Below are positions 164-59,324 of a stretch of 64,000 nt of DNA, in pieces. Origin of the DNA: a virus (taxonomy: Duplodnaviria; Heunggongvirae; Uroviricota; Caudoviricetes); IMG/VR virus record IMGVR_UViG_3300035210_000190; one strand, given 5' to 3'. Numbering within the stretch: position 1 is the first letter of the stretch; the number at the start of each line of letters is the position of its first letter. The notes beneath the pieces are model-generated. The model was not told the origin of the DNA. It ran no database searches and saw only the letters and a program-made list of their open reading frames with translations. Position numbers and translations under genes: made by a program.

Positions 164-1405
164 ATGTCAAATTTTGTTAAGCAGGCTCTTACATTGGTTG
201 ATAAATCTATCAAGGATCTTGACCTTCCGGTTTTTGAAATTGGTTTAGGTGCCACAAAACCAAAAAATCCTGTGATTCTTCATGCCAATGATCAATGTAT
301 TAAGTCCAACATGAAAGATCAAACCATTTACATTTTGACGCATAATGATATTCATATCGTTGATGACCTTTTGAGTTTAACACCCTATTTGAAGAATAAA
401 ATTCAGCGAGTTGGTCAATTTACTTCTGGAATGTATGGCGAAAAATCTCTTTTTAATCAGCCATCACATAAAGTTGTCCTTTTTTCAAATAAAGACATGA
501 TTGAACTTACCATTATTGGCACAACACTTAAATTTTTATTGAGTGCAGACAATATTAATATAAAATCTAACTTAGTCTGTGAATTTGGAGATTTCCCCTT
601 TTCTGATGTGTCTAGTCTTCATCGCATTATTGATGAATGCCTTGATAAACTTGTTGCAGATGTCCTGACAATTACTGGCTTCCCTAACTCAACGGAAACC
701 TCACTAGAAGTTTTAGATTTTCTAAACAAATCAGCAGTTGAATTGCTGTTACCATCACTTGTTAACAGTCGTTGTTCTTTTGTTAAGCCTAGCGAATACC
801 TTGACGCCTTGAAAATTGACTGGCCTGATTTTGTAGATATCAGAATGAAAGACGGCAAAAATAAAAATATTGATGACAATTTTTTCCCATGTGTGTTCAA
901 GGATGACGAACAATTAATATTTATCAGCACATTTTCTCAATTAATTAAGGATAAAAAATCGCACCACAAGTTCGAACAGCTAGTTGGATTAATGTCTTTT
1001 TACAGTTCTTTACTGGACAGGCCACTTAGTTTCCAAACCAATTTTTTTGGTGTTCGGAAGCCTACGTTTTTTGCAAACAAATCATGTGAACATGCTTTTT
1101 ATTCGTTTACTCTTTCTGACCTAACGCTTTCGGTGGGTCATAATATTGTGAGTGGTGAATTTAATGATGGAATTGCTGTTTATGATGTTAAAGAAGACAA
1201 TGAAACTTACAACTATAGTTTCAACTTTACAGTAGGTAAAAAGAAAGATTATGGAACGACAGTTGAACATTTAACCAATGATCTTGATTATGTGTATAAC
1301 TTTGTATTAGAAGCTATAAAAAAACATATTAATCAGAGCATTAGTAATGTTGATGGAGTCATTAATAAAGAACACATTGAAGTCTTTAAAATGTTAACTT
1401 TTTAA
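164..1405 (+). CDS. hypothetical protein, member 1 of tandem 415-aa paralog triplet
   Basis: long ORF; shared N-term and C-term motifs (DLDYVYN...I..HL.VFKML) with next two ORFs. Confidence 0.7.
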   Translation: MSNFVKQALTLVDKSIKDLDLPVFEIGLGATKPKNPVILHANDQCIKSNMKDQTIYILTHNDIHIVDDLLSLTPYLKNKIQRVGQFTSGMYGEKSLFNQPSHKVVLFSNKDMIELTIIGTTLKFLLSADNINIKSNLVCEFGDFPFSDVSSLHRIIDECLDKLVADVLTITGFPNSTETSLEVLDFLNKSAVELLLPSLVNSRCSFVKPSEYLDALKIDWPDFVDIRMKDGKNKNIDDNFFPCVFKDDEQLIFISTFSQLIKDKKSHHKFEQLVGLMSFYSSLLDRPLSFQTNFFGVRKPTFFANKSCEHAFYSFTLSDLTLSVGHNIVSGEFNDGIAVYDVKEDNETYNYSFNFTVGKKKDYGTTVEHLTNDLDYVYNFVLEAIKKHINQSISNVDGVINKEHIEVFKMLTF

Positions 1406-1449
1406 TATTATTGATAACTAACAAAAAAATCTTGAAGGGTATTTTCAAT

Positions 1450-2667
1450 ATGAACGATAATTTAAAAAGATTAGAAGCACTTATTCAATCATTTACGGTT
1501 GATAAAAACATTCCCATGATTAATATTCGTGAAAAAAATTGTTCTATTAATGGTGAAAACCAATGTTCTTTTGCGACAATAAAAGATCAGGATATTTATT
1601 TTATTGCACATGATGATGTAGACATTTTAGAAAAATATTTAAATTTAAGTGTACAGACTATTCAAAAAATAGAACAACTTAGGCAGTTTGCATTTGATAT
1701 TTATGAAAAAACTAATGAATGTCTTTTTAAACGATCAAAGATTAGACTTTTTCATAATAACACAATAGAATTTGCTATACTTGGCTTAGGTCGTTCAGGA
1801 TTAGTTGTCAATCTAACTGATAATATATTGACTGTTTCTCTTGTGGATATTTACAAAGAAACATCAGTTGAATTCATGTCTTTTGATGACATTGACACTG
1901 TATTGTATACGGCAATGGATTCTTTAACTGCTATGCTTATCAATCAAATTGGATTTGAAGGGAATGACCCACTTTCAGAAGATATTCTTAAATTTATCAA
2001 TAAATCTAAAGAACAACTGTTAGCTGATTATTTTAGTGTATTGCCCTTTAATTATATCGATCCCTCTCAATTGATTAAAGGTAGTTGCAATGATTTAAAC
2101 TATGATATTGAATCCATTAAACTAACAAGTGATAATGCTAGAATTCCATATCATATGATAAATATATTATCAAATGCCATTAAAAAGATTATTCCACGAA
2201 AAGAAGACAGTTATAAAATGAGTCAGCTTATTAGTTTAATGAACTTTTATTATAATCTAATAAATATTAGTCCAGAAAATAATGCTTCTAATATTTCATT
2301 TAAATGTTCAGAAAAGGCTTATATTGGTAAAAATAGTGAACTTGATAATATTTATTATTCATTTCATATTGGTTCAAAACTATCTCTTTATGTTGGTTAT
2401 AATTTAAAACATCATAATGATTATTACGTACCTATTTTAGATGCTAATGCTCCTGAACATGGCACTTATTATAAATTTACAACATCTATCAATAATAAAA
2501 AATCTGTAGATTCATATAAAATTTATGAAACTTATACAGATGATCTTGACTATGTTTACACCACTGTTTTAAACGAAATTAAAAGTGAAATAAATGAAAA
2601 AATTAACAATATTGGCGACACCATTACATCTAGACACCTTGATGTTTACAGGATGCTTGTGGTATAA
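1450..2667 (+). CDS. hypothetical protein, member 2 of paralog triplet (alt start 1411)
   Basis: paralogous to 164-1405 and 2710-3957; start chosen by alignment to paralogs. Confidence 0.7.
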   Translation: MNDNLKRLEALIQSFTVDKNIPMINIREKNCSINGENQCSFATIKDQDIYFIAHDDVDILEKYLNLSVQTIQKIEQLRQFAFDIYEKTNECLFKRSKIRLFHNNTIEFAILGLGRSGLVVNLTDNILTVSLVDIYKETSVEFMSFDDIDTVLYTAMDSLTAMLINQIGFEGNDPLSEDILKFINKSKEQLLADYFSVLPFNYIDPSQLIKGSCNDLNYDIESIKLTSDNARIPYHMINILSNAIKKIIPRKEDSYKMSQLISLMNFYYNLINISPENNASNISFKCSEKAYIGKNSELDNIYYSFHIGSKLSLYVGYNLKHHNDYYVPILDANAPEHGTYYKFTTSINNKKSVDSYKIYETYTDDLDYVYTTVLNEIKSEINEKINNIGDTITSRHLDVYRMLVV

Positions 2668-2709
2668 TGCTCAATCTATTATTTATCCAAAATTTGAGTT
2701 GAGTTTATT

Positions 2710-3957
2710 ATGATTATAAGTGAACGTATCAATGAATTAAGAGCAAACATTACATCATTTGTTTTGGAAAAGAACATTCCAATATTTAACACAAAACAAG
2801 GTTCTGGTCAATCTCTTGATGGTCAAAATCAGTGCTTTTTGGCCGAAATGAATACGATGGATGTGTATTTAATTGCACATGAAGATTTAAATATTGTTGA
2901 AAGATTCTTAAATCTAAATGATGAAACCATGAATAAGATAAACAAAATCAGGACATTTTGCTTTGGTTTTTATGCTAGTAGTCATCATGTGGGCAGTCAT
3001 AAACGTTTAAAAGTTAAACTCATTAATGGCAAAGGGATTGAGTTTTCAATCATTGGTGCTGGATTACCACCTTTTATCATTGATTTAAAAGATTATGAAA
3101 TCGTTGTTTCAGTTATGACGCAAAAACATTCTTCAACTGTGGTTTATTCTGGTGCTGATAATCTTGAAGATAAATTAAATTCAGCACTCGATTTAATAAT
3201 CCCTAATATGTTGAATGAATTAGGATTTTTTGATTGCACAGAAAATTCAAAAGAAGTTATTGATTTTATGAACAAGTCAACTGATGACCTGTTAGTTGAA
3301 CATTTTTCTGGATCAACTTTTAACTATATTAATAAAAATGCCTTACTTTTGAGTGCCTGCTCTGATTTGAATTTAAACTTTGATGATTTGCTTAATTACA
3401 ATAAAGATAATAATAATATTGCTCAACATCTGAAAATACCTCCTAACATGATATCTGTTTTTTCCAAAGTAATTAATAAATTAACACAATCCCCCGGAAG
3501 TGATAAAAAAATTAATCAACTCATTAGTTTGGTTTCTTTTTATAATTATTTAACATCTACTAATAGTGAATGCTCTATTACATTTAAAGCATTTTCAAAA
3601 ATTAGTTTGGTGCCTTCTTCAACTCTTGAATTTGATTATTGCTATTTTAATTTTTCAGATATTCTAAATATTACTTTGGGTCATCAATTGAAGCCTAGTT
3701 ATGAATACAATGGTATTTATGAGCACATAATTGATCAAGAAAATGAAAATGGTTATCTTTATAATTTTTTAATTGATATCGAACATAAAGACCCTAAGCC
3801 GGGTGATAAATTTATTAAATATTTCACCAATGATATTGATTATATCTATAATGTTCTTTTGATGGAGATTAAAAAATTAATTAATAAAACGATCTCTAAC
3901 ACAGAAGATGTTATCACATCAAGACAGCTTGAAGTTTTTAAAATGGCGACTGTTTAA
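2710..3957 (+). CDS. hypothetical protein, member 3 of paralog triplet
   Basis: paralogy; RBS. Confidence 0.7.
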   Translation: MIISERINELRANITSFVLEKNIPIFNTKQGSGQSLDGQNQCFLAEMNTMDVYLIAHEDLNIVERFLNLNDETMNKINKIRTFCFGFYASSHHVGSHKRLKVKLINGKGIEFSIIGAGLPPFIIDLKDYEIVVSVMTQKHSSTVVYSGADNLEDKLNSALDLIIPNMLNELGFFDCTENSKEVIDFMNKSTDDLLVEHFSGSTFNYINKNALLLSACSDLNLNFDDLLNYNKDNNNIAQHLKIPPNMISVFSKVINKLTQSPGSDKKINQLISLVSFYNYLTSTNSECSITFKAFSKISLVPSSTLEFDYCYFNFSDILNITLGHQLKPSYEYNGIYEHIIDQENENGYLYNFLIDIEHKDPKPGDKFIKYFTNDIDYIYNVLLMEIKKLINKTISNTEDVITSRQLEVFKMATV

Positions 3958-9239: not shown

Positions 9240-9313
9240 GGCTGTTTGTAGTTCAGTCGGCAGAACTCCGTCGAAAAACGGTAGTCGTGGGTTCGAATCC
9301 CATCATACAGCCT
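9240..9313 (+). tRNA. tRNA-like gene with atypical anticodon arm (4-bp stem, 6-nt loop CGAAAA); identity undetermined
   Basis: acceptor stem, D-arm GTTC/GAAC, canonical T-arm GTGGGTTCGAATCCCAT; co-transcribed with basic peptide gene; terminator at 9320-9350. Confidence 0.5.
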
Positions 9314-9816: not shown

Positions 9817-10001
9817 AATTTCAATGACAGACTAAACTTAAAAAAGAAACCTGTGATGGTTTCTTTTTATTTTACTTTTATATAATTACTTTTTATAAAA
9901 ATATCTTTTTTTAGATTAATTATATATTTAATAATTACGCTTGCCTTTTTACTTTAATACTATTTAATAAGAAATAAATAGTTCATTAATTTGAGGTAAA
10001 A

Positions 10002-10859
10002 ATGACAAAAAAATATATTTTAGCGTTAATTGCTCTATCCAGTTTAGGCACTTTATCGCAAGCTGATTATCAAATTCATATTCCAATTCAACATGCAATT
10101 TCTTTCAATGATAACACTTCCAGTGGTGGCTCAGGCGGTAGTGGTGGTGGTGGATTAGTTTTTACTGACCCTACTATATTGGCTGCATATGAAGCTAAAT
10201 GTGGTTCGTTTCCTAATAAAATAAACCCTTTGACTGATCCTATACGAGACTATGACATTAGTTGTGGTGATTATTCAAATAGAAATCTTTCTGGTTACAT
10301 GCTTGATAAAACCGGTATGCTTTTTACTAATTTTGCAAATTCAATATTAGATGGAGCTATATTAGGTAATTCTAACTTAACTAACAGTAATCTATCAGGA
10401 GCATCCCTAATAGGCACTCAGTTTACCGTAAATGGAGAAAGCACTGCATTAACGAATGCCGATGTTAGTAATGCTAACTTAACAAATGCTTATATGGATA
10501 AATCATATTTAGAAAAAACTAATTTTACTGACTCTAATTTAACAAGTGCTGTATTAACTAATGCTGCTTTTGTTGGTGCAAACTTGACCAATGCTAACTT
10601 AACGAATGCTAATTTTGATACTTCCTATGTCACTGACACGAACTTTACTAATGCAAATTTTACAGGAGCTATATTAACTAATACTGCATTTATTAATACG
10701 AACCTAACTAACGCAAATTTGATTGGAGCTGATCTCAGTACGAGTAGTTTTACCAATGTTGATTTCACTAATATCTTGTATGATTCGACTACAAAATGGC
10801 CTTCATGGTACACACCACCAAAATCAAGCAATGGATATCAGTTCACACCGCAGTGGTAA
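10002..10859 (+). CDS. secreted pentapeptide-repeat protein
   Basis: signal peptide plus long run of A(N/D)LTN pentapeptide repeats; Gly/Ser linker. Confidence 0.75.
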   Translation: MTKKYILALIALSSLGTLSQADYQIHIPIQHAISFNDNTSSGGSGGSGGGGLVFTDPTILAAYEAKCGSFPNKINPLTDPIRDYDISCGDYSNRNLSGYMLDKTGMLFTNFANSILDGAILGNSNLTNSNLSGASLIGTQFTVNGESTALTNADVSNANLTNAYMDKSYLEKTNFTDSNLTSAVLTNAAFVGANLTNANLTNANFDTSYVTDTNFTNANFTGAILTNTAFINTNLTNANLIGADLSTSSFTNVDFTNILYDSTTKWPSWYTPPKSSNGYQFTPQW

Positions 10860-11037
10860 GAAAAAGCTTGACAACTTTGAAAAAGTGTTGTCTAAAACAA
10901 CAACCAAAATGATTGAGATCTTCAATTATCAACCATTTTGAATAAGGCATTTTAACCAAATGTCTTATTTTTTGTCTGAAGTTGCGTTATTGAACCTTTT
11001 GGGCTAAAATATTTTTAAATTAACATGGGGCTGTCTA

Positions 11038-11493
11038 ATGATTTTAACTATCGAACTTGTACCTAAATCTTGCTGGTTTTCCAATTTGAGGGATCACCTC
11101 ACAGAAGCTCAATGGAAAGAAGTCAAACTCAGCACATTTAAGGCTGCAGATAATCGTTGTGAAATTTGTAATGGTGTTGGTGACAAGTGGCCGGTTGAAT
11201 GTCATGAGGTTTGGGAATATGACGATATCAATAAGGTACAACGTCTGGTGAGAACTGTTGCTCTTTGTCCTCCCTGCCATCAAGTGAAACATATCGGCAT
11301 GGCGATGGTGACAGGTCGTTACAATCATGCTAAATCTCATTTCTCGGCTATCAATAAAGTCCCCATGAGACAAACAGAACGCTATATTGAAAAAGCTTTC
11401 AATTTATTTAATGACCGATCAAAGTTTCAGTGGAAACTTGACGTTTCTTGGATTAATGAACACTTCGGATTTATAATAAAGGAAAAACGTTAA
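11038..11493 (+). CDS. HNH-family endonuclease (putative homing endonuclease)
   Basis: CEIC...ECHEVWEYDD...N...LCPPCHQVKH zinc-ribbon/HNH pattern. Confidence 0.5.
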   Translation: MILTIELVPKSCWFSNLRDHLTEAQWKEVKLSTFKAADNRCEICNGVGDKWPVECHEVWEYDDINKVQRLVRTVALCPPCHQVKHIGMAMVTGRYNHAKSHFSAINKVPMRQTERYIEKAFNLFNDRSKFQWKLDVSWINEHFGFIIKEKR

Positions 11494-11669
11494 TATATTT
11501 ACTTTTTCATAATTCAACTTAAACTATATTAATAACATTTTGGAGTATTATGTTTTTTTCTTTATTTTTAATATCATATTTGATATTAAGTTTAACATTG
11601 AGTATCGTTTATTATTACTATTATGCTTCATTTTATTTGGTTGCAGTTAATCTTATCATGATGATATTA

Positions 11670-13240
11670 ATTGTAAATAACCCCGACCTGAAGGACGGAG
11701 CTTTTGTTTTTCTAGAAGCCAAAATTAGTGTGTAAACACTCTAATCTTATTTTCTTGGGGCAGTTTACTATGCCTCTACTGGCTTCTTCGAAATATTGAT
11801 CTCTCCACATTTCAAAATCACCTTTACTTTTTAACCATTTTCTCAATATATTCCCTGCTCCATTCACATCTGCATTTAGCAACTTTCCTAATGAGGATTT
11901 GAACAATCCTCTTTTGGATCTTGTTCCTAAATAGCTCTTATGTTTTTTAACTTCTTCTAAATCTAAAAAGCTTGTTTTTGAAGTATATGATTCTTCATGT
12001 TTAGCAAAAAGCAAACCTTTACTTTTAGCTTTATATTCAAGCATGTTTTTAAATTTAAAAAATGGGACAGATACAAAACTTTGATTATTAACAGACCCAA
12101 TATTGATGGATTGTTTCTGTTCTTTATTTTCACCAACTAGTATGGTGTTGAGATTGTTTTTCAAACAATACTCCACAATATAATTAGTTGATCGATGATA
12201 ATAATCGTTGATTTTGTTGGTTCTATTACGAGATAGTTTGTTTTTCTTTTTAATCATAGCACTAACATCTTGGTTATTGTTTCGACCAAGATCTATTTTA
12301 CTTGATAATTTAGCGACTTTCTTATTATACCATTGGTTTAGGGATTTTAGATAACGCCCATCAAGGAGGATGGACGAACCATTGGTGGAATTAAGGCATG
12401 CACCTAAATTATTCAAGCCAAGGTCAATGGAAAGATAACGACCGTTATCTTCCATTGCCTTATCTTCTTCAACTTCATAGACTACTTCTACTTTAAATTC
12501 TTCTCCATTACTTTTAGGCAAGATACGCACTTCGTTTATCTTTTTTATATGTTTTGGAATTGAAATTTCAAGTTTAGTAAGTAAATGAGGATATTCTTTT
12601 TTAAAGTTCTTTGAACAATTAATAACAACTCTATTAACAGTATCTTTTTCTAGTTCTGTTTTATTTTTAACAAATCGAACACTACGCCCTTGAATAACGA
12701 TATTGGAATAGGTTGGTTTATCTTTTTTTCGATTCTTCTTGTATCGTGGTAAATTAATGGTGTTGGTTTTGTTTACTGACTTTTTAGCTTTCAAACTACC
12801 AAAGAAAGCCTTCATATCTGAGTAGGCCACTCTTCTTATTTGTTGAGAACAATCATTCAGTAACAATGAAAAGTTCTCATTAAGTTTAGTGGCATGATAG
12901 AGTTCAGTATCAGAAGGCATTTTTTCTTTGTTGAAGAAAGCTTGACGTAAAGGATATAAGCAAACATTATACATTTGAGAAGCATGGACAGAGAGCATTT
13001 GAACTAATTCTTTTTCTTCTGGGCTAAACGATTTACACCACATAGAAAGTGTGCGTAAATATTTAACTCTTTTTTTAGATTTATTAGCCATAACACTCCA
13101 AAAGCCAACTAATAAAATAGTTGACTAAAATATGGTTATTAGTATACAATATAAAACTTAAAAGTCAACTATAATGAGTTGGCAAAAAAACAACCCTATT
13201 CCTCCCCTGCCTGAAGGAAGAGGTATCCAAGGGTTTAACT
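11670..13240 (-). mobile_element. tnpB-only IS200/IS605-family element (IS1341-like) with similar imperfect hairpins at both ends in direct orientation; boundaries approximate
   Basis: TnpB ORF flanked by CCCCGACCTGAAGGACGGAGC (11681-11701) and CCTCCCCTGCCTGAAGGAAGAGG (13200-13222), plus 86-bp imperfect palindrome 13104-13190. Confidence 0.6.
11712..13091 (-). CDS. tnpB: TnpB (IS605 OrfB-family RuvC-like RNA-guided nuclease/transposase accessory protein)
   Basis: RuvC-I IDLGLNNLGA, RuvC-II ESYTSKTS, RuvC-III NADVNGAGNI motifs; 459 aa. Confidence 0.85.
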   Translation of the reverse strand: MANKSKKRVKYLRTLSMWCKSFSPEEKELVQMLSVHASQMYNVCLYPLRQAFFNKEKMPSDTELYHATKLNENFSLLLNDCSQQIRRVAYSDMKAFFGSLKAKKSVNKTNTINLPRYKKNRKKDKPTYSNIVIQGRSVRFVKNKTELEKDTVNRVVINCSKNFKKEYPHLLTKLEISIPKHIKKINEVRILPKSNGEEFKVEVVYEVEEDKAMEDNGRYLSIDLGLNNLGACLNSTNGSSILLDGRYLKSLNQWYNKKVAKLSSKIDLGRNNNQDVSAMIKKKNKLSRNRTNKINDYYHRSTNYIVEYCLKNNLNTILVGENKEQKQSINIGSVNNQSFVSVPFFKFKNMLEYKAKSKGLLFAKHEESYTSKTSFLDLEEVKKHKSYLGTRSKRGLFKSSLGKLLNADVNGAGNILRKWLKSKGDFEMWRDQYFEEASRGIVNCPKKIRLECLHTNFGF

Positions 13241-13487
13241 AGATGACAAAGGATGAAAGATAGAATCTTTGTTAATTTATACAAAAAATTAGAGAAAAAA
13301 GATCCTTCTATTTCAATAGATCTAGGCATTTTTCAGTGTGTCTACATGATTTTAATTTTGCCTATTCTTTTCTTTAAAATCATGACAAGCATTGTTTCAT
13401 ATTTTGTTTCTTAATTATAAAAAAAATACGATATTGCTTGCCCCAAAACCATATTCTTGCTAGAATAGCCTCATCAAAACCTAGAAG

Positions 13488-13730
13488 GTGATTATTATGA
13501 CTATTCGTTCTCGTAGTGAAAAAGCTAAAAAAATTCAGATTGATTTGGCCGGTGAGCAGGGTAATGCCCATTGCTTGCTGGGGATTGCTGCCAACATTGG
13601 TAAGCAACTGAAAAAGACACCAGAAGAAATTCAAGCTATCACTGCAGAAATGACTTCTAGCGACTATGAGCATCTTGTTGCTACGCTCGAAAAACATTAC
13701 GGTGATTATATCGACATTTACGAGGTGTAA
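13488..13730 (+). CDS. hypothetical protein
   Basis: promoter TTGCTAGAAT, ORF. Confidence 0.6.
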   Translation: MIIMTIRSRSEKAKKIQIDLAGEQGNAHCLLGIAANIGKQLKKTPEEIQAITAEMTSSDYEHLVATLEKHYGDYIDIYEV

Positions 13731-13829
13731 CCTGTTTTTTAGTGTGGTTTTCGCCTAAAAATGATAGCCACACTCATAAAACTCTGTTATAATACATCTA
13801 CACAATCAGCAAGAGCAAGGATATACATC

Positions 13830-14153
13830 ATGTTCCCTCAATCAATCGTCACTGCCGATGTCATCAATGTTGACTACGACTCAGCTAAGTTCGTGGTTGA
13901 TGGAAAAAATGGTGAGCAAGAAGTTGCTGTCCGCTTCTTTTGCACTATCCTTGTTCGGGGTGGTTTTATTTTCCGCCATACCAGTCAACTGCTGGATGAG
14001 GCAACAGCTTCTAACGTTACTGAAAAAGTTTACAATCATGTCTTTAAAGATAAAGGCACTGTGAACATGAAGTTTTGGCAAGAATATTACTCAACACCTA
14101 GCACACCACTGCTCGAAAAAATGCAGCTTGAAGCTCATCTCGAAACAGCGTAA
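13830..14153 (+). CDS. hypothetical protein (internal start of ORF 13761)
   Basis: promoter TGTTATAAT 13783; RBS AAGGA. Confidence 0.6.
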   Translation: MFPQSIVTADVINVDYDSAKFVVDGKNGEQEVAVRFFCTILVRGGFIFRHTSQLLDEATASNVTEKVYNHVFKDKGTVNMKFWQEYYSTPSTPLLEKMQLEAHLETA

Positions 14154-14205
14154 ACTACTACTTTTTTGGGAGTGTTTAACTCCCACATCTCTTTTAAGGA
14201 TCACA

Positions 14206-14604
14206 ATGACCCAAGTTACTCAGCTAGAACGCGAAGTTATCTCCAGTATTGCCAAACTGGGTTATCGTTCTGTTAAAACCTCGGAAATTCACACTATTTC
14301 TGACATCATCAAAAAAGCCCAAGTGAATGCCGTCCTGCTCAACTTGAAACGCAAAGGCATGGTGACTCTCATGGTCGATGGGATTGCTTCGCTGACCGTC
14401 CAAGGTTTGAACTCGTTCAATACCAACTATGGCGATAAAGCCACTTTTGATGCTCAAAGTGCTCACAACGCTAAGATGCTCTTTGGTCGCCCAATGAGCC
14501 GTGATGAATTGAGGTTTGTGAACAAGTGCATCGACATTCGCAATCAAGGTGTTAAAGTGGGTAAAACCATCAAAGGAATCAAGGAATGGCTCAACCGCCG
14601 TTAA
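14206..14604 (+). CDS. hypothetical protein, possible winged-helix DNA-binding
   Basis: RBS AAGGA; N-terminal helix-rich region. Confidence 0.5.
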   Translation: MTQVTQLEREVISSIAKLGYRSVKTSEIHTISDIIKKAQVNAVLLNLKRKGMVTLMVDGIASLTVQGLNSFNTNYGDKATFDAQSAHNAKMLFGRPMSRDELRFVNKCIDIRNQGVKVGKTIKGIKEWLNRR

Positions 14605-14741
14605 TTTGACATTTATTGTGAAAAAAGAGAAGCTTCGGCTTCTTTTTTTTGTATGGTAAAAAAAAAGTAATTTTATATAACAATAAATTGACACAATATA
14701 AAACTACTTGTATTATAGTATTAATAATAATAATAAAAATC

Positions 14742-15686
14742 ATGTCCATTAAAAAAATACTCTTAGTTCCTGTACTTTCATTGTTAGGAATGAATTCTTT
14801 CGCAGAATATCAAATACAATATCCAAATGTTCCTGTAATCTTTAAAGATCTTGGTCAATGGGTTCCAACGAATCCTGTCATCTCTATTTGGGTTAATGTG
14901 GGAACTCCACATGATTGTACAAGTGCTGCACCACTTGAGAACACACAACAACTTGGTGTGTCTTATGAAAAAACATTCTCGGGCTGTAAGCAGTCCCAAG
15001 AAAGAACTGTAACCACTTCTGAAAAACAAACTGTTACTGGGGCTATTCGTAATCAAGTCAGCACCAAAGAAACACAAGTGTTAACTGATGCTAGTTATAA
15101 AGTAAATGCTATTGGCACTACCGATTTTGGTCAATGGTTAGAAACTGCTCCAGTTTATACAGGTTGGAGAAATCTTGAATCTCCACATGATTGCACAAGT
15201 GCTGCACCACTTGAAAACACACAAACACTTGGTTCAACTTATGTAAAAACATTTTCTGGTTGTAAACAATCACAAGAGCGTGATGTTACGACATCTGAAA
15301 AGAATACTGTTACAGGCAATGTTCGTAACGTGAAAACAACGAAGGAAACTCAGCTTATTACTGATGCCACTTATACTACAAATGCCACAGGCACTAAAAT
15401 AGTTAAAGAATGTGGATATTCAGCAGCAAGTGGAGCTTTTGCTAGATGGTATGATATTGCAACTTATGATGGTTATACAACTACTTATGGTATGGGCTTA
15501 CAATGGGCTGGTGCCACACTTGTTAACACTGCAAACAGCAGCACAACTTATCCAAAATCTGCGAATTATGTCAAATCTGGCTATGTTTACACACGCGGTG
15601 CGTTTAAAGAGAAATCTGGTCATAATGATAATATACGCACTTTTTACTACTATTATGAAGTCTGTAGAGAACCTGTTGCACCATAA
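14742..15686 (+). CDS. secreted protein with two tandem ~90-aa Cys-containing repeats (HDCTSAAPLENTQ...FSGCKQSQER...TVTG.IRN)
   Basis: signal peptide MSIKKILLVPVLSLLGMNSFA; internal duplication; perfect TTGACA-17-TATTAT promoter 14689-14717. Confidence 0.75.
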   Translation: MSIKKILLVPVLSLLGMNSFAEYQIQYPNVPVIFKDLGQWVPTNPVISIWVNVGTPHDCTSAAPLENTQQLGVSYEKTFSGCKQSQERTVTTSEKQTVTGAIRNQVSTKETQVLTDASYKVNAIGTTDFGQWLETAPVYTGWRNLESPHDCTSAAPLENTQTLGSTYVKTFSGCKQSQERDVTTSEKNTVTGNVRNVKTTKETQLITDATYTTNATGTKIVKECGYSAASGAFARWYDIATYDGYTTTYGMGLQWAGATLVNTANSSTTYPKSANYVKSGYVYTRGAFKEKSGHNDNIRTFYYYYEVCREPVAP

Positions 15687-33832: not shown

Positions 33833-34954
33833 ATGTCCAGCATCTTCCCCCGTATTGAAACCCTTGATGATATGATTCCTCATATCAAAGACCGTGCCTA
33901 TATTTCTCTTAACAAACAGGATAACGGTGCCGACATCGTTTGCTACAACATCAGCAACGGTGACTCTTTCAACACTCCGGTTGAAAAGGAAGCTCGCGGT
34001 ATTACCTTTGACGACAACGGTAAAATACTGTCGCGTCCATTGCACAAATTCTTCAACTTGGCAGAGCGTGCAGAAGTCCAGCCAGCCGTTTTGGATTGGA
34101 ACACTATGGTTGCCGGGTTTGATAAAATGGATGGCTCCATGATTACCACAGGGCTGTTCAAAGGCGAATTCTTTGCTAAGTCCAAGAAGTCTTTCAAATC
34201 GGATGTGGCTGTTTCGGCAGAAGGCTTTGTGTCTCGTAACCAGAAATACTACGAGTTCACCAAATATTGCTCTCAGGCCCAACTGACGCCAATTTTTGAA
34301 TTCACTTCGCCAAAGCATCGTATCGTTTTGCGTTATGACGAAGACAACATGACATTGCTTCATGTTCGTCACAACATCACAGGCGATTACTTAATGCCTG
34401 CTGAAAAAGACCAACTGGCGTTGTTGTTTGATATTCCTGTTAACAAGCCACTGTTTGGTGAAGAATTTGATTTGGCTTCCCTGTTGAAGTCGCTGAACAC
34501 GGTTGAAGGGATTGAAGGCTATGTTATTCAATTCGTTAACGGTAACATGATCAAAATCAAAACCAAATGGTATATGAATCTCCATCATGCGGTTAGCTTT
34601 GTTCGTGAACGTGATATTGCTCGTTTGGTGGTCGAAGAAAAACTTGATGATTACATTGCTTATTTGTCGCTAAACTCGCCAACGGCTGATTTGAGTGAAA
34701 TTTATCGTATCAATGACGCTATCAAAGCTTCGATTGAAGCGTTGTCGAAAGAGGTTGATGATATTGCTGCTGCATTCCAAGGTGTTGACGTGAAAACTGC
34801 AGCAATCCAACTCAAAGGCCACAAACACTTTGGTTTTGTTATGGGGGCAATTCGTGGTCACAAAAACGACTACCTGTATCACTACTCTAAAAACCATCTG
34901 GTGGATTGGTCGTTGGACCAAATTGAGCTTGGCGACTTGTCCGCTCCCGTTTAA
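33833..34954 (+). CDS. RNA ligase, Rnl1 family (divergent paralog A)
   Basis: KFFNL, nucleotidyl-lysine motif DKMDGSM, EGYVIQFVNGNMIKIKTKWYMNLH matching T4 Rnl1 motifs. Confidence 0.8.
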   Translation: MSSIFPRIETLDDMIPHIKDRAYISLNKQDNGADIVCYNISNGDSFNTPVEKEARGITFDDNGKILSRPLHKFFNLAERAEVQPAVLDWNTMVAGFDKMDGSMITTGLFKGEFFAKSKKSFKSDVAVSAEGFVSRNQKYYEFTKYCSQAQLTPIFEFTSPKHRIVLRYDEDNMTLLHVRHNITGDYLMPAEKDQLALLFDIPVNKPLFGEEFDLASLLKSLNTVEGIEGYVIQFVNGNMIKIKTKWYMNLHHAVSFVRERDIARLVVEEKLDDYIAYLSLNSPTADLSEIYRINDAIKASIEALSKEVDDIAAAFQGVDVKTAAIQLKGHKHFGFVMGAIRGHKNDYLYHYSKNHLVDWSLDQIELGDLSAPV

Positions 34955-35912: not shown

Positions 35913-37046
35913 ATGGAGATTCACATGACTTATCAACAAGAACTGTATGCCCAACTGATGAACCTGTTGGTTACTAATCCGGGGTCTTTTAAATACCGTG
36001 ATGAAATCTCGGCGGTAGACGGTGGGACTTACCGTGTCTTCAACTATGACATTCCAAAGCACTCCGAATTCAAACTTCCGGGTGCCAAGGATTGCCGTGG
36101 AGTCATGTTCTACATGGGCGGTTCTGAGCCAATGCTGGTGGCATTGCCAATGCAGAAATTCTTTTCCTTGGGCGAAACCCCTGAAACGCAAAAGGTGAAG
36201 CCAGAAGAAGCCGACCACGCTTATCTGAAACCCGATGGCTCGTTGCTCACCAGCTATATTTCTCCGATCAATAATACTCTTTACTACAAGAGTAAAAAGA
36301 AGCCTACGTTTGCTGATTACGGCCTTGTTGAACAGTCTATCAGTCCAGAATTGCACGCAGACGTTGAACGGCTGACCCGCACAGGTGTTTCGGTTGACTT
36401 GGAACTGACCACGCCGAAAAACCGTGTTTTCATCGAATACACTACCTACGAAGTTCATGTGTTGAAAGCCCGCGACATGAACACAGGGGCTTATGTGGAC
36501 ATTCGTTCGGCAGAATTTGCCGCAGAATATCCGGTTATTGCGGCCCATTTGGTGAAACGTATCCCTATCAATGAACTCAACGTTAATGACCCTGAAATTG
36601 AGGGTTATGTGGTTGAATTTGGCCCTGACATGTATAAGGTCAAGACCATTCCTTACCTGAAAATGTCGGCAGTGGTTAACATTCAGGATCGTTCGAAGGA
36701 ACGTCAGGTTATTTATGAAGCAACTCTTCATGAAATTCTGGATGAAATTCGTTCGCTGTATCATTACCGGACACACAGCGACAACTTCCCACTGGCTGAA
36801 ATTCTGGCTCGCTTGGATGAAGTCGAAGACTACGCCCGTAAAAGCTACCATTACCTTGTTCGCACGGTTGATAGCTTCCACGATGAGCATAAAGGTTTGG
36901 AACGTGGCGATTACGCTCGTAAAGCCAAAGAAGTGGCTCCATTGCTTCTGTCGGTGTTGATGAGCAAGTTTTCGGGTGACGAGATTGATTACAAACAAGC
37001 CGCTATCATGGTGTTTGCTCGTAAACAAGTGCCTATCCCCGAGTAA
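35913..37046 (+). CDS. rnlA: RNA ligase 1 (T4 Rnl1-like; likely start 35925)
   Basis: TYRVFNY, DCRGVMFYM, QKFFSL, LKPDGSLL (lysine motif I), EGYVVEF...YKVKT match T4 Rnl1. Confidence 0.85.
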   Translation: MEIHMTYQQELYAQLMNLLVTNPGSFKYRDEISAVDGGTYRVFNYDIPKHSEFKLPGAKDCRGVMFYMGGSEPMLVALPMQKFFSLGETPETQKVKPEEADHAYLKPDGSLLTSYISPINNTLYYKSKKKPTFADYGLVEQSISPELHADVERLTRTGVSVDLELTTPKNRVFIEYTTYEVHVLKARDMNTGAYVDIRSAEFAAEYPVIAAHLVKRIPINELNVNDPEIEGYVVEFGPDMYKVKTIPYLKMSAVVNIQDRSKERQVIYEATLHEILDEIRSLYHYRTHSDNFPLAEILARLDEVEDYARKSYHYLVRTVDSFHDEHKGLERGDYARKAKEVAPLLLSVLMSKFSGDEIDYKQAAIMVFARKQVPIPE

Positions 37047-51938: not shown

Positions 51939-52010
51939 GGGCCGGTGGTGTTTAACGGGAACAAGTGTCCTTAACCGGATGAGTTCTGGGTTCGAGTCCC
52001 AGTCGGTCCT
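51939..52010 (+). tRNA. tRNA-like gene, atypical anticodon arm (5-bp stem with two G-U pairs, 6-nt loop UUAACC); monocistronic with own promoter and terminator
   Basis: acceptor stem GGGCCGG/TCGGTCC, D-arm TGTT/AACA, canonical T-arm CTGGGTTCGAGTCCCAG; terminator 52029-52053. Confidence 0.5.
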
Positions 52011-52149
52011 CCTAATTTAAAATACAGATAAACCGCCTTCTTGGCGGTTTTTTGTTTTAACACTTTTGAATAATAATCATTTTTCACTACCAGTATTATA
52101 GACAACAAAAAGCCCGCTTCTGCGGGCCTTTTATATTACTGTTGGAAAA

Positions 52150-58897: not shown

Positions 58898-58982
58898 GCC
58901 CGAGTGGTGGAATGGTAGACACGGGAGACTTAAAATCTCCTTTCCTTCGGAAGTGCCGGTTCGAGTCCGGCCTCGGGCACCA
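58898..58982 (+). tRNA. tRNA-Leu (anticodon UAA), type II with long variable arm, CCA encoded
   Basis: acceptor GCCCGAG/CTCGGGC, anticodon stem GGAGA/TCTCC loop CTTAAAA, T-arm CCGGTTCGAGTCCGG. Confidence 0.85.
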
Positions 58983-59247
58983 AATTAAACGTTGCACAAT
59001 GTTCTTGAATGGCTTAAAATAGCCTAACTTTAATCAGATGAGGATTAACAGAGATTTTCGTAGGTTGGCATCCTGCGGATTCAGGCAGAACCTAAGACCT
59101 TTGGTAAACCAATAAATCCAAAGTAGGGGCTTCGATAAAGAGATTAGAAGTCGCTTGAAATAGATTGCTAGGTATTTATATTTTAAAATAGAGAATATAT
59201 AATTGAGGATACTGGGTGGTTTAGACGGGTTCTAAGCCACCAACCAC

Positions 59248-59324
59248 GGGACTTTAGCTCAGTTGGTTAGAGCATCCGACTCATAATCGGCAGGTCACAG
59301 GTTCAAGTCCTGTAAGTCCCACCA
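59248..59324 (+). tRNA. tRNA with CAU anticodon (Met, or Ile2 if lysidinylated), CCA encoded
   Basis: GGGACTT acceptor, D-arm GCTCAGTTGGTTAGAGC, anticodon loop CTCATAA, T-arm CAGGTTCAAGTCCTG. Confidence 0.85.

Follow-up and report, generated by a model that had tools for sequence, protein, structure and literature searches.

Genes for TnpB are often annotated in phage genomes, usually without defined ends, target motif, guide or empty site, and the TnpB of ISDra2 is a protein of 408 amino acids (aa). Here we present the analysis of one such gene in a 64,000-nucleotide (nt) stretch of the IMG/VR virus record IMGVR_UViG_3300035210_000190 (Caudoviricetes), hereafter the window. We consider it highly probable that positions 11673-13252 are a non-autonomous, tnpB-only insertion sequence of the IS200/IS605 family, of IS1341 type and 1,580 base pairs (bp) in length. 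The IS1341 subgroup is defined by its tnpB-only layout (ISfinder, summarised in PMC13565253). A homing mechanism is described for the Geobacillus IS605 TnpB (PMC10055086), and a 2026 review regards homing into co-infecting phages as theoretical, with experimental support for plasmids only (PMC13565253). A further context is provided by the TnpBs with a rearranged RuvC-II motif, which are considered probably active, an alternative Glu having been proposed from structure predictions; some of these rearranged branches are enriched in viruses, and some large TnpB branches have lost the zinc finger (PMC10691335).

The extent of the element is set by uninterrupted alleles in related phages. Three contigs, designated L020, L023 and L183, are empty at this site and read ...ATTAATT/ATGAAAG..., which equals window position 11672 joined to 13253 with no repeated bases, and the element is therefore exactly 11673-13252, its left limit lying beyond the 13240 given in the initial annotation. 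In L023 the junction is CTTATCATGATGATATTAATT joined to ATGAAAGG, that is, window 11652-11672 followed by 13253 onwards. In L020 (163 kb, ~79-86% identity to the window) the uninterrupted gene is flanked, as in the window, by the HNH gene and by the downstream genes, and it has the same neighbours in L023 (57 kb, ~79-93% identity) and in L183 (~89-90% identity). Together with the occupied contigs L021 and L022, which are 99.7-99.96% identical to the likewise occupied window, these contigs constitute a presence/absence polymorphism. The pentanucleotide TTCAT is present in all three empty sites, and its plus-strand reading, ATGAA, gives the Met42 codon of the interrupted gene. Insertion 3' of TTCAT without target duplication corresponds to the defining traits of IS200/IS605 transposition. 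The element, which starts CCTTTGTC... and finishes ...GTTATTTAC (11673-11681), has no terminal inverted repeats; instead, subterminal imperfect palindromes in the same orientation are found at both ends.

Joining 11672 to 13253 also restores a gene. The 61-aa open reading frame (ORF) at the right end (RE) fuses in frame with a 53-aa ORF (13253-13414) to give a product of 94 aa, and the 61-aa ORF is revealed as a composite, with codons 1-41 taken from a conserved 94-aa gene and 20 further codons from the element. A search with the reconstructed protein returned homologues that match over the full length: those with 94 aa are 95% and 84% identical to it, and one with 89 aa is 76% identical. It also returned a 61-aa protein matching the truncated form. 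The product is strongly hydrophobic and is taken to be a small membrane protein; no family match was found for it. The proposal in the initial annotation that the insertion may have disrupted a gene for a small phage membrane protein is thus upheld by the 94-aa homologues in the empty phages.

The same unit recurs in unrelated surroundings. Five further clusters of proteins 88-91% identical were found in differing genomic contexts, and the copies at six other loci (L001, L002, L004, L005, L006 and L025) make, with that of the window, seven independent insertions. All seven are 1,578-1,583 bp long and preceded by TTCAT, have unrelated 3' flanks and lack both target duplications and terminal inverted repeats; in the flank alignment similarity starts right after TTCAT and stops at GTTRTTTAC, and blastn matches of the other loci to the window are confined to 11673-13257. 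Nucleotide identity of the other copies to the window copy is 86.7-90.7%. The L001 copy lies on a 124-kb contig carrying aminoacyl-tRNA synthetase genes, the L004 copy on a contig of phage-like character, beside a T4 RNA ligase gene; this contig also has a weak RegB match. Two copies are on bacterial contigs, L002 (1.54 Mb) adjoining macAB-tolC and L025 (1.86 Mb); both contigs are low in G+C (0.31-0.33) and their TnpBs are 88% identical to that of the window. The best named matches of the MacB beside the L002 copy are to Shigella/Escherichia (62%) and Vibrio (58-60%), which may be a vague gammaproteobacterial hint and a possible clue to the phage host; a scan of GTDB genomes returned only cyanobacterial TnpBs ~30% identical and did not pinpoint the host. 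Within the window itself, a search for solo ends or further copies gave only the element.

More distant relatives were sought in IMG/VR, where a scan with the single protein gave no match and an alignment-based scan gave 423 relatives in viral contigs, the closest 54% identical. A DNA pattern for the left end (LE), AGGAATAGGGTTNNTTTTT, gave six matches there, all dismissed as chance on inspection. A contig of megaphage size (IMGVR_UViG_3300031133_000383, 437 kb; loci L104 and L105) carries at least two related elements with TnpB 54% identical, which occupy differing sites and share the architecture of hairpin, promoter and RNA.

Comparison across these copies gives the ends their significance. 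Two TGAA-loop hairpins had been noted in the initial annotation and are present within 1 nt of where it put them: read on the plus strand, CCTGCC-TGAA-GGAAGAGG at 13206-13223 in the LE and CCCCGACC-TGAA-GGACGGAG at 11681-11700 in the RE. A repeat search showed them to form a direct repeat (11681-11695 and 13204-13218, 87% identical); on the minus strand, the LE inner stem-loop reads CCTCTTCC-TTCA-GGCAGGGG (13204-13223). Since the folding energy of either hairpin as single-stranded DNA is no better than that of shuffled sequence (z about -0.5), the case for them rests on cross-copy comparison. Across nine copies, including the relatives with 54% identical TnpB, 98.3% of cells in the LE hairpin are paired, against 31-62% in slid controls, and both sides have changed in 5 of 13 pairs. 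The RE hairpin is kept in 32 distinct relatives despite very different stems, with compensatory types in all eight pairs tested. The IS200/IS605 architecture first proposed for this locus accordingly stands, with both ends present and covarying.

The LE carries, in addition, a palindrome that is real but shorter than the 86 bp (13104-13190) originally assigned to it. It spans about 80 bp (13104-13183), folds as DNA with z = -4.6 (0 of 200 shuffles equal) and brackets the putative tnpB promoter, which is the joint best match in the region (10/12) and has hexamers conserved across the copies. The double-palindrome arrangement is conserved in L026 and L105, both with TnpB 54% identical, and may be an operator for some repressor. 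We know of no prior description of a promoter bracketed in this way within a left end.

Since TnpB alone cannot separate IS605 from IS607, and since the element interrupts an ORF as IStrons do, two other classes have to be weighed at this point: an IS607-type element, which a serine recombinase would move, or an IStron, which would be removed from the interrupted mRNA by splicing. The element lies antisense to the interrupted gene, so that splicing out of its mRNA is impossible, and neither a group I intron nor any other Rfam family was found in 10500-14500. The subterminal hairpins of the two ends, insertion 3' of a 5-nt motif and the lack of duplication are IS200/IS605 traits, and those relatives that have a transposase partner carry Y1_Tnp, not a serine recombinase. 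We therefore hold either class to be extremely improbable and retain the IS200/IS605 assignment.

The second line of evidence comes from the RNA. The predicted scaffold of the omega-RNA (also right-end element RNA, reRNA) comprises the last ~145 nt of the element, arranged in five helices and a pseudoknot, and overlaps the last ~100 nt of tnpB as well as the RE hairpin. The initial annotation had rightly placed such an RNA at the tnpB 3' end, over a span (11494-11870) that proved much too wide. Among ten sequences, 97.2% of cells in four nested helices and the pseudoknot are paired and seven pairs are doubly changed; the observed value was reached by none of 500 shuffles on four of five measures and by 2 of 500 on the fifth, and the RNA fold has z = -4.1. 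A covariance model of the nested helices matches the tnpB 3' end in many more-distant relatives, and pair counts beyond the ten sequences refer to 32 distinct matches of this kind. The pseudoknot, which was left out of the model, has 95.9% of its cells paired, against 15-38% in slid controls, and 4 of its 6 pairs carry changes on both sides; its variants are GUAAAC/GUUUAC, GUCAAC/GUUGAC, GUCAAU/AUUGAC, AUAAAC/GUUUAU and GUGGAU/GUUCAC. With MAFFT, the distant RNAs were aligned with stem A shifted out of register, and from that alignment RNAalifold recovered the terminal hairpin only; the covariance-model alignment was adopted for this reason. In the coding sequence, the mean synonymous substitution rate (dS) is 0.145 in the last 30 tnpB codons and 0.32-0.76 across the remaining gene, which points to a second constraint on the 3' end. 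The coordinates of these features are collected in the table.

Table. Features of the element and of the gene it interrupts (positions in the window)
Feature	Position	Strand	Basis or remark
Whole insertion sequence	11673..13252	minus (the element's top strand)	homology span and empty sites
Target and target-adjacent motif (TAM), TTCAT	13253..13257	minus	phage DNA directly 5' of LE
LE, non-coding	13092..13252	minus	conserved in all copies
LE imperfect hairpin, 44 nt, then T-run	13192..13235	minus	covariation; outer stem AACCCT/AGGGTT
Palindrome, two GYCAACT-N(6-8)-AGTTGRC units bracketing tnpB promoter	13104..13183	none	fold and conservation
Putative sigma-70-like promoter of tnpB, TTGACT-16-TATACT	13141..13168	minus	consensus match only
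tnpB, 459 aa	11712..13091	minus	ORF, hidden Markov model (HMM) and structure
RE subterminal hairpin, GCTCCGTCC-TTCA-GGTCGGGGT	11680..11701	minus	covariation
Predicted omega-RNA scaffold, overlapping tnpB 3' end and RE	~11673..11816	minus	covariation, dS, RNA fold
Omega-RNA 5' hairpin	11787-11816	minus	recurs with different sequences in relatives
Omega-RNA P1, AGAAGCC with GGCTTCT	11781-11787 with 11714-11720	minus	covariation
Omega-RNA stem A, GGCA with UGCC	11771-11774 with 11759-11762	minus	covariation
Omega-RNA pseudoknot, loop GUAAAC with the element's last six nt	11763-11768 with 11673-11678	minus	covariation
Omega-RNA stem B	11737-11744 with 11725-11732	minus	covariation
Omega-RNA terminal hairpin	11680-11701	minus	covariation
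Predicted guide segment, AATTAATATCATCATGATAA	11653..11672	minus	flanking phage DNA; ~20-nt length assumed; position from scaffold/flank boundary
Interrupted gene, 5' part, codons 1-41	11550..11672	plus	frame continues into the element to 11735
Interrupted gene, 3' part, codons 42-94 and stop	13253..13414	plus	reconstruction and homologues

The boundary between scaffold and flank is sharp, in keeping with the earlier expectation that the guide derives from flanking phage DNA, and each of the seven copies has its own flank-derived guide. Compared with the sequence that follows TTCAT at the empty sites, the predicted guide of the window matches L023 at 27 of 27 positions, has one mismatch in L183 (position 16) and two in L020 (positions 3 and 18; target AACTAATATC...). 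The protospacer of the occupied genome follows TTTAC instead of TTCAT, and the element would for that reason spare itself.

These guides bear on whether the locus has become a domesticated phage gene, no longer a transposon and serving either as a weapon against competitors or as a nuclease-dead regulator like TldR. The exact match of the guide to the empty allele of related phages, by which competitors would be harmed or converted, speaks for such a role, as do the 423 viral relatives, which show the TnpB clade to be common in viral contigs, and the lack of tnpA. A domesticated gene would be expected to keep a fixed guide at a fixed locus; here the guide differs from copy to copy, and the same 1.58-kb unit with its ends is found at seven unrelated sites, among them two on bacterial contigs (1.5 and 1.9 Mb). 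The transposon ends are intact, with covariation at each, and the catalytic Asp residues are retained, unlike those of TldR. Domestication is on these grounds very unlikely, and the locus is better read as an insertion sequence.

The identity of the protein itself is clear. The 459-aa minus-strand TnpB of the initial annotation was confirmed: HMM searches matched it to Pfam OrfB_IS605 (1.7e-19) and Cas12f1-like_TNB (4.7e-10), to NCBIfam guided_TnpB (145.5 bits; cut-off 100) and to PHROG 506 (transposase), and an AlphaFold2 model built on 90 homologues (mean predicted local distance difference test score, pLDDT, 88.8; predicted template modelling score, pTM, 0.81) has Cas12f, the ISFba1 and ISDra2 TnpBs and Fanzor2 as its best full-length PDB matches. 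Ratios of nonsynonymous to synonymous substitution (dN/dS) of 0.08-0.15 among the seven copies indicate that tnpB is under purifying selection. Intact RuvC-I, II and III motifs had been claimed for it; this holds for I and III, where D223 and D408 (the latter in the motif NADVN) are invariant in the 90 homologues. The Glu of a 'VGEN' motif, E321, resembles the RuvC-II acid; members of the clade have E, D or Y at this position. The same homologues all keep E367, which lies where the following beta strand ends in the model. The protein fits the RuvC-II-rearranged type of TnpB, with E367 as the predicted relocated catalytic Glu.

Several results weigh against the assignment, or against a presently active element. 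In a profile alignment with AsCas12f, the canonical RuvC-II catalytic Glu falls opposite the invariant G320, so the canonical D-E-D triad is absent and predicted activity rests on the alternative Glu. The cysteines of the CCCC zinc finger of the TNB domain are lacking clade-wide (motif YTSKTSF...RGLFKSSLG). Neither a tnpA, as initially noted, nor a second tnpB was found in the 64-kb window, and no tnpA was found adjoining relatives at least 40% identical; current mobility would hence depend on a helper in trans. A Y1_Tnp transposase (Pfam 1.6e-40) does adjoin relatives whose TnpB is 28-38% identical, and the placement in IS1341 follows from the end architecture and this partner of the 28-38% relatives, with none at 40% or above. 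An Rfam scan of 10500-14500 at E values up to 10 gave chance-level matches only; neither an omega-RNA nor an intron family was among them. Nucleotide divergence between the copies is ~12% (dS 0.18-0.67), and no sampled transposition can therefore be recent. A single occupied lineage was sampled, and its nearest empty relatives are ~90% identical in the flanks; with such ~10% divergence, homing is not favoured over a single old insertion.

On this account the element could be an inactive relic, an old insertion whose TnpB no longer cuts and whose sequence merely persists. The Gly at the canonical Glu and the missing cysteines, the lack of tnpA, the divergence among copies and that of the nearest empty allele would all suit a relic. 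Set against them are dN/dS ratios that are low in seven copies from different genomes, the invariance of D223, E367 and D408, and the preservation of both ends and of the RNA scaffold by compensatory changes. The Gly with its alternative Glu is conserved clade-wide, and an arrangement of this kind has been judged likely active (PMC10691335). The unit also occupies at least seven different insertion sites. We consider a relic very unlikely, and an insertion sequence with a putatively active TnpB the better explanation.

Taken together, these features allow a mechanism to be proposed. The element would have entered single-stranded phage DNA directly 3' of TTCAT, between codons 41 and 42 of the interrupted gene. 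We infer that the omega-RNA is transcribed and processed and is bound by TnpB, as predicted after the ISDra2 and Geobacillus IS605 TnpBs. The complex would recognise TTCAT followed by AATTAATATCATCATG..., a combination present only in the uninterrupted allele, and would cut that allele, whereupon recombinational repair from an occupied genome copy would copy the element back in. Within one genome, such cutting would preserve the element after excision; where an occupied and an empty phage infect one cell, the outcome would be RNA-guided homing. Moves to new sites would need a Y1 (HUH) TnpA supplied in trans, the element encoding none.

The element may plausibly serve in homing or in competition between phages. 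A more specific scenario is possible, if rather doubtful: during co-infection, the TnpB-omega-RNA complex of the occupied phage would cut the 94-aa gene of its relatives at TTCAT-AATTAATATC... and so convert or destroy their genomes, as RNA-guided homing or interference; L020, with its mismatch at position 3, might then be a resistant allele, and the two low-GC, gammaproteobacterial-looking contigs might point to the phage host and to where TnpA comes from.

The window resembles the genome of a large phage, with a mostly plus-strand gene array, two T4-type RNA ligases, an HNH endonuclease and tRNA genes; most of its ORFs have no family match. Among 50,697 deposited phage records, megablast found none that matches 10000-15000; the phage has no close relative among these and none in culture. 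The best protein match of one RNA ligase is to the Ralstonia jumbo phage RsoM2USA (41%). The HNH endonuclease gene, already noted as adjoining the element, was identified by its match to PHROG 5200 (5e-49), with no Pfam or NCBIfam match; it occupies 11038-11493, adjoining the interrupted gene on the upstream side. The HNH gene is found in occupied and empty phages alike, without polymorphism in this sample, and since the empty phages carry it too it is not linked to the element.

Other features of the window stand apart from the element. The ligase genes at 33833-34954 and 35913-37046 are two diverged paralogues (26% identity) of T4 Rnl1 type (PHROG 562). A 285-aa pentapeptide-repeat protein is encoded at 10002-10859, 0.8 kb from the element; it is missing in L023 and is 254 aa long in L020, which makes its locus a second variable locus of the neighbourhood. 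Three tandem paralogous ORFs at 164-3957 (413, 418 and 415 aa; 27-33% identical pairwise) have an unusually low G+C content (0.27-0.31) and no Pfam or PHROG match. A 345-aa ORF at 14649-15686, also without a family match, contains an internal duplication in which the motif ...PHDCTSAAPLENTQ...GCKQSQER..VTTSEK... occurs twice. ARAGORN predicts tRNA-like genes of undetermined anticodon at 9242-9312 and 51939-52012, and tRNA-Leu(taa) and tRNA-Met(cat) at 58898-59324.

The element is a well-resolved yet ordinary insertion sequence of a known family. Its interest lies in the resolution, to the nucleotide, of ends, target motif, guide and empty site, in a natural phage population that holds both alleles. 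The locus is thereby a tangible system in which to examine whether RNA-guided homing carries TnpB elements from one co-infecting phage to another, complete with the TAM TTCAT, a predicted guide, a target that matches it perfectly and a target variant with a seed mismatch. Characterisation of this zinc-finger-less TnpB clade with its relocated Glu would also be eased by the RNA scaffold and its covariation support.

Among known systems, the closest in layout is the IS1341 group, with which the element shares a single tnpB, the lack of terminal inverted repeats and of duplication, one-strand hairpin ends, a length of ~1.6 kb and insertion 3' of a short specific sequence, which is TTCAT here, TTGAT in ISDra2 and TTAC in IS608. 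It differs in its host, an uncultivated large phage, and in the palindrome-bracketed promoter of its left end. In overall fold the protein is that of the Deinococcus radiodurans ISDra2 TnpB (PDB 8H1J and 8EXA; Foldseek E 4e-11 and 2e-8), than which it is longer. With ISDra2 and the Geobacillus IS605 the locus has in common an RNA scaffold overlapping the tnpB 3' end and the RE, a flank-derived guide, a pseudoknot between an internal loop and the nucleotides just before the guide, and a TAM that is the transposon's own target site. The differences are a sequence identity of ~15%, the RuvC-II Gly with E367 one strand later, and the absence of a CCCC zinc finger.

In its catalytic residues the protein resembles the RIIr-5 clade (Altae-Tran et al. 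2023, PMC10691335), in which a Gly likewise replaces the RuvC-II Glu and is accompanied by a compensating Glu; the NADVN motif in RuvC-III is shared with the 'derived' NADXN TnpB clades of the same study. The zinc finger is conserved in RIIr-5 (PMC10691335) and absent here, and the likeness is one of motifs. In its distribution the element recalls the free-standing T-even homing endonucleases SegF, SegB and Mob (PMC13565253), whose genes are likewise present or absent among related phages and which, as predicted here, cut the allele lacking them; unlike these, it would recognise its target by an RNA guide and TAM and not through the protein, and it has transposon ends and occurs also in bacterial chromosomes.

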